A DNA stretch of 63,998 bases, the filler included, from Dirinaria sp. TL-2023a (lineage: Eukaryota), in the NCBI GenBank assembly GCA_051941275.1. It is 7 parts of 7 records of this genome, joined end to end, with 100 filler letters (N's around TTAATTAATTAA, not from the genome) between each part and the next. Parts side by side here need not be neighbours in the genome. Positions count along the whole stretch, not along the records: positions 55,217 to 63,998 come from JAVEBF010001141.1; 6 more parts are not named here. One strand, given 5' to 3'. Both the position numbers and the translations under genes were made by a program. This document shows positions 58,321-60,299 of this stretch, piece by piece. Within the stretch, counting starts at the first letter, position 1. Every line of letters starts with the position of its first letter. The notes under the pieces were generated by a model. It saw only the letters and a list, made by a program, of their open reading frames with translations. It was not told where the DNA came from and searched no databases.

Positions 58321-59032
58321 TCTAGTAACGACGGTATTCTCCATTGGGTCTTCCTTTGTGGATAGGGACAGCATGAGTTGCCTATCTCGTCTCCTTTGAC
58401 AGATTCCGACTGAAATTGATAGAGACTTCTTGACTAGATATCTCTGATCATTATCAGTTCAAGCTGGGGGAGAGCAGTTTCATGCCACAATCAATGGTGA
58501 TTTTGATACACCACTTTACAGATCCTCCAACAATTTAATTTTAGGATCTGTTCAGGGCTGCTTAGCTGTAAGGTCGGGTTATGCAGCCAGTGGGAATAAT
58601 AATGCCGCAAGTGCAGTATCTCCGTAGCGTGCATTGCATGCTGCACAGATCATTGCACAAAACCCCCCGCACTTACATGTGACGTATGTAAAACAGTGTC
58701 CCAACAATTTTGGCTGCCCCGCATATTATTGATAATCATAAAGTATGATGCGAATAAAGGTTCGATCTCTCCTCACTCTTCCTCTCTTCCTTCCTCACAA
58801 TCCACCCAAGTCTGTTGCAAAGAAACCTGCGATTTTTGCCACCGGCTATAGACATCTACAGTAACATCCGAATTCTTTCGATGAATGTCTATGCACTAAC
58901 TCGTACAGGATTTATCACTCCAACATTCGACGATAACTATCAAGTACATAACCCCAAAAACGGGAAAGATGGCACACAATCGCTGGGAGCATATCCAAGA
59001 TGATCAAATACCCGCAGCAGGTAATGTCTCAT

Positions 59033-59203
59033 GCATGGACCGGTGTTCGTTCCTTTCGGCCTCTCTTGCTGCCCATCCACCACCTCCACTCCTACTCCCA
59101 TAGGAAGGAGGTGAGATGAGTGGCAAGACGTTTGGCCGAAGGCTCGTTCTGAGATTATACGGTTTCCAACTTGATCTGGATAATACCAGCGAAAGGACCA
59201 TGC
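59033..59203 (+). promoter_or_regulatory. TPP (thiamine pyrophosphate) riboswitch in the 5'-leader intron of THI4
   Basis: P1 gcatgg/ccatgc, then accggtg, a long P3, CTGAGA, ttatacggt and the P4/P5 core CTTGATCTGGATAATACCAGCGAAAGG. It lies 12 nt after a CAG|GTAATG donor and before the acceptor preceding the THI4 ATG. Confidence 0.97.
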
Positions 59204-59263
59204 TTTCCCCCTTTCCCCACCTTTTCGTGATCGTCTTACACGTCCAGCAGGTCCTTGTGAACA

Positions 59264-60299
59264 ATGTCTCCACCCGCTGCCCTGTTCCAGGAGGCTCCCG
59301 CCGTAGCTGATGGGATGCCGACCAAAATCCTTAACGGAAAGCCAAATGGCACTCATGTGGGCGATGCTACAACCCTCAAGGAGACGATGGGGAAATGGGA
59401 GAATTTCCAATTCGCCCCAATCCGGGAGAGTCAGGTCTCCCGAGCCATGACTCGCCGCTATTTTGAGGATCTCGACCGCTATGCCGAGAGCGACATCGTC
59501 ATTGTCGGCGCTGGATCTTGCGGCCTCAGTACGGCCTACATGCTTGGCAAGCAGCGGCCGGACTTGAAGATTGCCATTATCGAAGCCAACGTATCCCCAG
59601 GTAAAGATACCATTCCCTTCCGCATCCTACGACAAGCTAAGCTCGCCTCTGGCAGGTGGTGGCGCATGGCTCGGCGGGCAACTTTTCTCGGCAATGGTGA
59701 TGCGCAAACCCGCCGACGCTTTCCTACGCGAGCTCGGCGTCCCCTACGACGATGAAGGCAGCCACGTGGTGGTCAAGCACGCCGCGCTCTTCACCTCGAC
59801 CCTGCTATCGAAAGTTCTTCAATTCCCCAACATCAAGCTCTTCAATGCTACAAGCGTCGAGGACCTCATTACGCGCCCTGCTGCCTCTGGCGTCGGGGTG
59901 CGTATCGCAGGTGTCGTCACCAATTGGACGCTTGTCAGCATGCACCACGATGACCAGAGCTGCATGGACCCCAACACCATCAACGCTCCGGTTGTCATAT
60001 CCACGACTGGCCACGACGGGCCCTTCGGAGCTTTCTGTGTCAAGAGGTTGGTCAGTATGGGTCAGATTGAGAAGCTGGGCGGGATGCGTGGCCTTGATAT
60101 GAATACTGCTGAAGATACGATTGTGAAGCGCACCCGAGAGGTGATCCCGGGTTTGATTGTGGGTGGCATGGAGCTGAGCGAGGTGGACGGTGCCAACCGT
60201 ATGGGACCCACATTTGGCGCCATGGCATTGAGCGGTGTCAAGGCTGCCGAAGAGGCGTTGAAGGTCTTTGAGGAGAGAGCGTTAGAGAATAAGGAGTAA
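59264..60299 (+). CDS. THI4: Thiamine thiazole synthase, 2 coding exons
   Basis: [46 protein letters not shown] across intron 59601-59655, [11 protein letters not shown] (active-site Cys), GHDGPFGAF and RMGPTFGAM. Confidence 0.98.

Follow-up and report, generated by a model that had tools for sequence, protein, structure and literature searches.

The analysis of a stretch of 63,998 nucleotides (nt) of DNA from Dirinaria sp. TL-2023a (assembly GCA_051941275.1), called the window below, located a 307-nt intron in the leader of THI4, the gene of the fungal thiazole synthase of vitamin-B1 biosynthesis. This intron, at 58944–59250, carries a putative thiamine pyrophosphate (TPP)-binding aptamer and probably switches the gene off by way of which 5′ splice site is used. 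We established the identity of the gene, the covariation of the aptamer, the intron itself, the use of its distal donor and of its acceptor, an isoform that retains it, the frames of the upstream open reading frames (uORFs) and the conservation of the elements involved. Several of these had been proposed from the DNA alone, without database searches; that proposal is referred to as the sequence-only reading. The elements of the locus, which include upstream ATGs (uATGs) and the coding sequence (CDS), are listed here in order along the plus strand.

58909–58943, plus strand: short leader exon, the first one seen, without an ATG; RNA contigs of a relative start at 58911–58916, and its 3′ end is the distal donor
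58944–58949, plus strand: distal 5′ splice site S1, GTACAT (TCAA/GTACAT), seen as an RNA junction; 16 of 18 relatives have a GTAC-type donor
58944–59250, plus strand: riboswitch intron of 307 nt, from an RNA junction, with the AG of the 3′ splice site at 59249–59250
58962–58972, plus strand: alpha-like anti-P1 element GGGAAAGAUGG, which holds the uATG at 58969; predicted to pair with 59198–59209
58969–58971, plus strand: uATG 1, opening a uORF of 35 amino acids in the proximal isoform and of 44 amino acids if the intron is retained
58980–59007, plus strand: anti-P4/P5 element, made up of UCGCUGG (58980–86), UAUCCA (58992–97) and GAUCAA (59002–07), with the aptamer's CCAGCGA, UGGAUA and UUGAUC as complements
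59000–59002, plus strand: uATG 2, opening a uORF of 26 amino acids in the proximal isoform
59021–59026, plus strand: candidate proximal 5′ splice site S2, CAGCAG/GTAATG, 12 nt before P1, from conservation
59033–59203, plus strand: TPP aptamer, from local Rfam search, folding, alignment and covariation
59033–38 with 59198–203, plus strand: stem P1 (GCAUGG/CCAUGC)
59039–42 with 59160–63, plus strand: stem P2
about 59052–59142, plus strand: long P3 hairpin (91 nt)
59149–54, plus strand: CUGAGA
59170–72 with 59193–95, plus strand: stem P4
59176–79 with 59186–89, plus strand: stem P5
59198–59209, plus strand: alpha′-like element CCAUGCUUUCCC, in which the 3′ strand of P1 runs on into the beginning of the pyrimidine tract
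59235–59240, plus strand: candidate branch site CTTACA, found heuristically; the corresponding sequence in relatives is CTAAC or CTGAC
59251–59600, plus strand: second exon, a 13-nt leader followed by THI4 CDS exon 1 from the ATG at 59264
59601–59655, plus strand: CDS intron of 55 nt, GT..AG, removed in RNA contigs (joint 59597>59653, cut +3)
59656–60299, plus strand: THI4 CDS exon 2, to the stop codon

The CDS thus runs over 59264–59600 and 59656–60299. Pfam Thi4 matches both of its exons (E-values (E) 8e-21 and 2e-86), and the best solved relative of the product is the N. crassa thiazole synthase homologue (PDB 3jsk, E 2e-108). These matches confirm the name THI4 that the sequence-only reading had given to the gene. 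The transcript structure was obtained from RNA. Four RNA-seq runs of one lichen sample contain part of the window; three of them and one other run were compared with it as contigs. The contigs are 90–99% identical to the window (about 95% overall) and are therefore those of a close relative and not of this strain; they represent one environmental sample and a single condition as to thiamine. The junction 58943>59251 (GT..AG) is present in contigs of runs X2 (depth 201) and X4 (depth 35.8), and with it the distal donor at 58944 and the acceptor at 59250 were found to be as predicted. The acceptor has the context CAGCAG/GTCC, 59250 being the last base of the intron, and the main ATG follows 13 nt past it. 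An unspliced leader contig, 58916–59274, has depths of 52.4 (versus 201 spliced) and 10.1 (versus 35.8), about a quarter of the spliced form, and in run X1 a contig of 1351 nt has lost the CDS intron but still includes the leader intron. Intron retention, a second abundant isoform, had not been considered in the sequence-only reading. The cover by RNA contigs starts at about 58911, which does not show that transcripts are absent further upstream; run X5 spans 60069–60280 only.

Comparison of the relative with the window revealed 12 differences in the leader. They spare both donors, the acceptor, alpha, the anti-P4/P5 element, P1, P2, P4 and P5. Five of them fall within the aptamer, all in or beside the variable P3 hairpin, where 59053 C>U and 59054 U>C keep the P3 pairs.

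The limits proposed for the aptamer, 59033 and 59203, coincide with the ends of P1, and its presence there was upheld by the core, by covariation and by a local match to the Rfam model RF00059. A permissive search of 58850–59350 gave 36.3 bits (E 1.5e-5) as compared with a cut-off of 54.3 bits; the model puts P1 and P2 wrongly, on the base of the inserted 91-nt P3 hairpin. The aptamer stretch folds with −70.1 kcal/mol (z = −4.4). A conserved core is present at 59149–59197, and its invariant columns comprise the CUGAGA bulge, ACGG and UUGAUCUGGAUAAUACCAGCGAAAGGA with the UAAU motif. G59173 and G59191 are spaced 18 nt apart; both the motif and an 18-nt spacing of Gs are named in the accessible text of PMC5882874. 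The 26-mer at 59172–59197 has a single copy in the window, and 100 shuffles did not yield it.

For comparison, 79 THI4 loci (identified below by L numbers) were taken from metagenomes. An aptamer core upstream of exon 1 was found in 21 loci by a narrow pattern and in 35 of the 79 by a wider one. The sets of 19–20 sequences used for alignment and modelling leave out L015 and L016 (tail pattern mismatch), the 19-locus set for donors and uORFs being the window and 18 relatives. The 31-locus set consists of the window and 30 relatives, L062, L016 and L024 being left out for their short flanks, and L015 was left out of the 29-locus set used for the anti-P1 test. In an alignment of 20 sequences (the window and 19 THI4 leaders) the 55-nt core, which begins at CUGAGA and takes in the 3′ strand of P1, is almost letter-identical. 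The 17 pairs of P1, P2, P4 and P5 are standard in 97.6% of the 340 cells, versus 22–52% when partners were slid. The outer P2 pair covaries perfectly, half of the sequences (10) having A-U and the other half (10) G-C. At the inner P1 pair, 15 have A-U, 2 have G-U and 2 have G-C, the window being among the last. Judged by this comparison, 59033–59203 is an aptamer of the TPP class with covarying stems, and it would be expected to bind TPP.

Further observations concern aptamers elsewhere. A second class of THI4 aptamer, missed by the narrow pattern, has CAGG..CCUG in P5 in place of CUGG..CCAG, swapped on both sides of the pairs (L003, L013, L017, L019, L021, L029, L030, L036, L056, L058, L074, L077 and L079). 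L039 has a second RF00059 match (700–801, minus strand, 38.6 bits) upstream of an open reading frame (459–587, minus strand) that matches Pfam NMT1/THI5 (E 4e-11); NMT1 and THI4 stand head to head there, each with its own aptamer. In the RNA, a second transcript contig (1.6–2.4 kb, depth 8–28; X1, X2 and X4) matches only the 61 bases at 59144–59204, from which it departs by 4 differences and a gap of 2 bases; both of its flanks are unrelated. By this match, a different gene of the relative has a paralogous TPP aptamer.

The sequence-only reading placed two competing donors and two uATGs in front of the aptamer. CAG/GTAATG, named as the proximal donor, is present at 59021, and a G/GTA donor lies 11–30 nt before P1 in all 31 loci. 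At least one uATG was found within the 90 nt before the proximal donor region in each of these loci, and the 19-locus set has 1–8 uATGs per locus. Modelling of the isoforms agreed with what had been claimed for the uATGs at 58969 and 59000. In the 59020>59251 isoform the former is in frame +1, with its stop ending at 59306, and the latter in frame +2, with its stop ending at 59310; the two uORFs cross the main ATG (59264) out of frame and end inside the CDS. Distal splicing removes both, and the 58943>59251 isoform has zero uATGs. The intron-retained leader has seven, two of which (59116 and 59200) overlap the main ATG. With acceptors chosen heuristically, the modelled proximal isoforms carry uORFs in 19/19 loci and an in-frame extension of THI4 in 0/19.

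Three loci, L004, L005 and L009, are short contigs without an aptamer, in which the uATGs and a TATCC..GATCAAG element are joined directly to a short pre-ATG exon. L004 agrees with L003 in both flanks; between these, L003 contains 241 nt, the aptamer among them, and L004 just 30 nt. Such contigs look like proximal-spliced mRNAs of relatives, in which S2 is probably used. The leaders of L002 and L012 have neither aptamer nor uATG; their assignment to the distal isoform could not be made.

As to the distal donor, it is of an unusual GTAC(A/G) type, without G at +5, in 17 of the 19 loci, and reads GTACAT in 8. By rough arithmetic, the chance of a GTAC in a random 130-nt stretch is about 0.4. A weak S1 would fit the need for a long-range helix.

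Upstream of the proximal donor lies the sequence complementary to P4 and P5. The predicted duplex consists of helices of 7, 6 and 6 base pairs and a fourth of 3 base pairs, amounting to −24.7 kcal/mol, and 3 of 500 shuffles were as good. A strict TATC[CT]..ATCA motif, the complement of P5 and P4, was found in 13 of the 31 loci, the window included, versus 77 of 5000 control segments (1.5%), and the z-score of the duplex is negative in 19/19 loci. The unconstrained minimum-free-energy fold of the entire leader (−110.3 kcal/mol) is the anti-aptamer state: both aptamer halves are paired with 58962–59012, and a helix takes in the proximal GU. Enforcing the aptamer gives −100.4 kcal/mol, a cost of about 10 kcal/mol. 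A candidate helix between exon 1 and the branch region (58929–34/59230–35) was rejected, since two of its six base pairs are lost in the relative (59232 C>G and 59233 G>A) with no compensating change.

A second pairing was predicted between 58962–58972 and 59198–59209, that is, between an element past the distal donor and the 3′ strand of P1 with its tail. The own pairing of each leader and tail was compared with permuted ones in 29 loci, using segments that were set automatically and independently of the choice of donor. The own pairs had a mean of −14.64 kcal/mol versus −13.05 (standard deviation 0.43) for the permuted ones, and 3 of 10000 permutations were as good. In 21 of the 29 loci the own tail was better than its reversed copy. 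A control target 60 nt further downstream was null in the 29 loci (6722 of 10000 permutations as good). After collapse to 9 clusters at a threshold of 0.60 the median p was 0.001; thresholds of 0.55 and 0.52 merged all loci into 1–2 clusters and were uninformative. In an unguided MAFFT alignment, nine pairs in fixed register are standard in 81.6% of 261 cells, versus 31–57% when slid, and 19 cells have changed on both sides; this was equalled by 3 of 500 shuffles, which kinship alone can also beat. The same arrangement occurs in other letters in L020 (GAAGAAGC/GCUUCUUC), L013 (GCAGA/UCUGC) and L028 (GUGAUGAAGC/GCUUCAUCAC). In the window, 18 nt separate S1 from alpha, 41 nt separate alpha′ from the 3′ splice site, and about 225 nt lie between the two strands. 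According to these alignments, 58962–58972 and 59198–59209 would form a covarying long-range helix that resembles the alpha/alpha′ pairing of NCU01977.

These elements suggest how the switch would work; in the mechanism that we infer, TPP binds the aptamer, the choice of donor depends on the ligand, and the donor at 59021 is used in this organism. At low TPP, 58962–72 would pair with the P1 3′ strand and the tail, and 58980–59007 with the strands of P4 and P5, so that the aptamer would be blocked. Local structure would hold the proximal GU, and the distal donor would be brought close to the branch site and the 3′ splice site. Splicing at 58943>59251 would then remove all uATGs and leave a short clean leader, from which THI4 would be translated. 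At high TPP the ligand would lock P1–P5 and free the segment between the donors. The donor at 59021 would be used, or the intron kept, and uORFs crossing the ATG at 59264 out of frame would block the translation of THI4. A more specific proposal, which we regard as tentative and rather doubtful, is that THI4 leaders combine the masking of P4/P5 with an anti-P1 helix of the alpha/alpha′ type. A purine run with CAUG about 18 nt past the distal donor, with a uATG inside, would pair with the P1 3′ shoulder as well as with the pyrimidine tract that precedes the branch site. Without TPP, the helix would keep P1 from forming and bring the distal donor, a weak one of the GTAC type, close to the 3′ splice site.

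A number of results weigh against a switch of this kind at the locus. At the gathering score RF00059 had no match in the entire window, so that of the Rfam search suggested in the sequence-only reading only the local match stood; read strictly, this is the outcome that the reading had named as refuting it, and the answer has to be a qualified one. In an Rfam scan of 18 THI4 loci an upstream match was found in 15; 14 of these are below the cut-off (35.5–45 bits), L031 (57.3 bits) alone attaining it. Scores under the cut-off are therefore usual in the THI4 subgroup, for which it is not diagnostic. Neither GTACAT nor GTAATG has G at +5. With heuristic acceptors, a uORF overlapping the main ATG out of frame was found in only 9 of the 19 loci. 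When the anti-P4/P5 duplex was compared with 90-nt genomic tiles of the window, 92 of 1412 were as good; it beats shuffles and not tiles, and the evidence from the single sequence is therefore modest. The proximal GU is partly paired in the aptamer-enforced fold too and so is paired in both folds, which means that thermodynamic folding alone does not show its unmasking. No poly(A) tail is present on L004, L005 or L009, which leaves their origin from RNA unproven. The junction 59020>59251, the part of the proximal-donor claim that did not find support, was not found in any RNA contig of the relative; contigs drop rare forms and cannot show absence, so the missing joint does not mean that the isoform is absent. 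A possible cause is that uORF-bearing mRNAs may be unstable. Finally, the RNA is that of a relative, from one sample and with no thiamine contrast.

Some of these data could be explained by intron retention alone being the OFF state: TPP would block 58944 as the sole functional donor, 59021 would never be used, and the seven uATGs of the unspliced leader, with those at 59116 and 59200 overlapping the main ATG, would bring about repression. The second isoform in the RNA is indeed the retained form alone, at about a quarter of the spliced depth, and GTAATG, the donor that this explanation would leave idle, lacks G at +5. However, a G/GTA donor occupies the same place in 31/31 loci, 59021 is the sole GT besides 59026 between the distal donor and P1, and three relatives' contigs look proximal-spliced. 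Use of the proximal site has been published for N. crassa (PMC3597705, accessible text), and the unspliced reads may be mere precursor RNA. We consider it unlikely that retention does the work by itself. It is much less probable still that the aptamer is a conserved relic without regulatory role in a leader intron spliced constitutively from 58944. The distal-spliced form is dominant in the single sample, but a relic would hardly agree with an invariant core and stems that covary across 20–29 loci, with conservation of the expression-platform elements outside the aptamer, or with substitutions in the relative that spare all switch elements. That a structured, GC-rich leader without an aptamer resembles one by chance draws on the sub-threshold Rfam score and is refuted as far as sequence can refute it: the 55-nt core is near-identical in 19 THI4 leaders, the 26-mer is in 0/100 shuffles, the stems covary and the local match has E 1.5e-5. 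A switch in the choice of the 5′ splice site thus remains the reading that we prefer.

Related systems have been known for some time. For thiA of Aspergillus oryzae, a THI4-family gene, it was reportedly found by Kubodera et al. in 2003 that thiamine regulation needs the splicing of a 5′-untranslated-region (UTR) intron with a riboswitch-like domain. The 'Type I' of PMC5882874 (Mukherjee et al. 2018), a layout that its accessible text describes for THI4/NMT1, has the order S1, uORF, S2, aptamer and AG before the exon. In the accessible text of PMC3597705 (Li and Breaker 2013), P4/P5 nucleotides of NMT1 and THI4 block a 5′ splice site without TPP, the uORF-bearing product precludes expression, and use of the proximal site was found in N. 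crassa. The layout of the window agrees with both papers, as the sequence-only reading had said in invoking the logic of Neurospora NMT1/THI4, and it adds a further example to a known class. By this comparison the locus probably belongs to the published Type I of fungal TPP switches and, the anti-P1 helix aside, is an ordinary example. The remark that a track of open reading frames cannot show such a switch was fair, whereas its architecture is already catalogued across fungi. The words 'lichen' and 'Lecanoromycetes' are absent from the text of PMC5882874, and a literature search aimed at lichens yielded nothing but hits of the Bacillus licheniformis type.

As far as the accessible text of the two papers describes them, N. 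crassa NMT1 and THI4 share with the window an aptamer in a 5′-UTR intron, two 5′ splice sites, of which the proximal one is a candidate in the window, with one or more uORFs in between, and an AG directly ahead of the exon of the main reading frame. They also share complementarity of P4/P5 to sequence near the proximal donor and an OFF switch on a thiamine-biosynthesis gene, which for the window is inferred. In contrast to them, the window has its anti-P4 element 14 nt upstream of the proximal donor and not abutting it, both of its uORFs overlap the main ATG, and it has the extra predicted anti-P1 helix. In many relatives the anti-P4 element abuts the proximal donor (ATCAAG/GT). The plant THIC riboswitch (PMC3597705, accessible text) is of the same aptamer class and has P4/P5-type masking of a single 5′ splice site, but its place is the 3′ UTR and its effect comes from the loss of a processing signal and from mRNA stability, not from uORFs.

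The closest parallel to the anti-P1 helix is found in NCU01977, the 'Type II' case. In the accessible text of PMC3597705 this gene is the only one for which alpha/alpha′ pairing to the 3′ shoulder of P1 is described, and the mechanism is called different from that of NMT1/THI4. As is predicted for the window, the 3′ shoulder of P1 is paired without TPP to an element that lies between S1 and S2, and the strands covary across species. The geometry of the window, with alpha 18 nt past S1, fits as well: alpha′ of NCU01977 is less than 60 nt from the 3′ splice site (41 nt in the window). NCU01977, however, is of the urea-transporter family and has an intron of 550–900 nt between coding exons, about 530 nt between the strands and an alpha of the form RGCGGYRRY, again by the accessible text; the window has a 307-nt THI4 leader intron, a purine-run and CAUG alpha that includes a uATG, and masking of P4/P5 as well. 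Lacking the Type II intron, gene class and alpha consensus, the window is not a member of the NCU01977 type and works only partly like one. A search that did not include two key papers, but took in papers that cite Moldovan 2018, found no published description of anti-P1 pairing in THI4 leaders, and this helix might be the only part of the switch that is new.

Two observations lie outside the switch itself. A candidate extra leader intron of 48 nt at 58861–58908 has a GTAACA donor, a CACTAAC branch and an ACAG acceptor; the relative's RNA contigs, which start at 58911–58916, begin just past this acceptor, and relatives have a CTAAC/CTGAC..YAG motif 17–45 nt upstream of the distal donor. Either the transcript may begin with the 35-nt piece 58909–58943, or this piece may be a micro-exon flanked by introns. 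On the other side of the gene, an open reading frame of 324 amino acids (60588–61562, minus strand) is convergent with the 3′ end of THI4.

Overall, the gene model of THI4 is settled, with the leader intron 58944–59250 and a short upstream exon, and a known regulatory class has been annotated in a fungus from lichen material. With 1 of 15 passing, default Rfam thresholds in automated annotation will miss most THI4-linked fungal aptamers. If the proposed combination with P4/P5 masking is true, two mechanisms treated as distinct, that of NMT1/THI4 and that of NCU01977, would be merged, and the uATG in the anti-P1 helix would be hidden in one state and exposed in the other. Should the anti-P1 helix hold up, the fungal 'Type I' and 'Type II' mechanisms would share a component.

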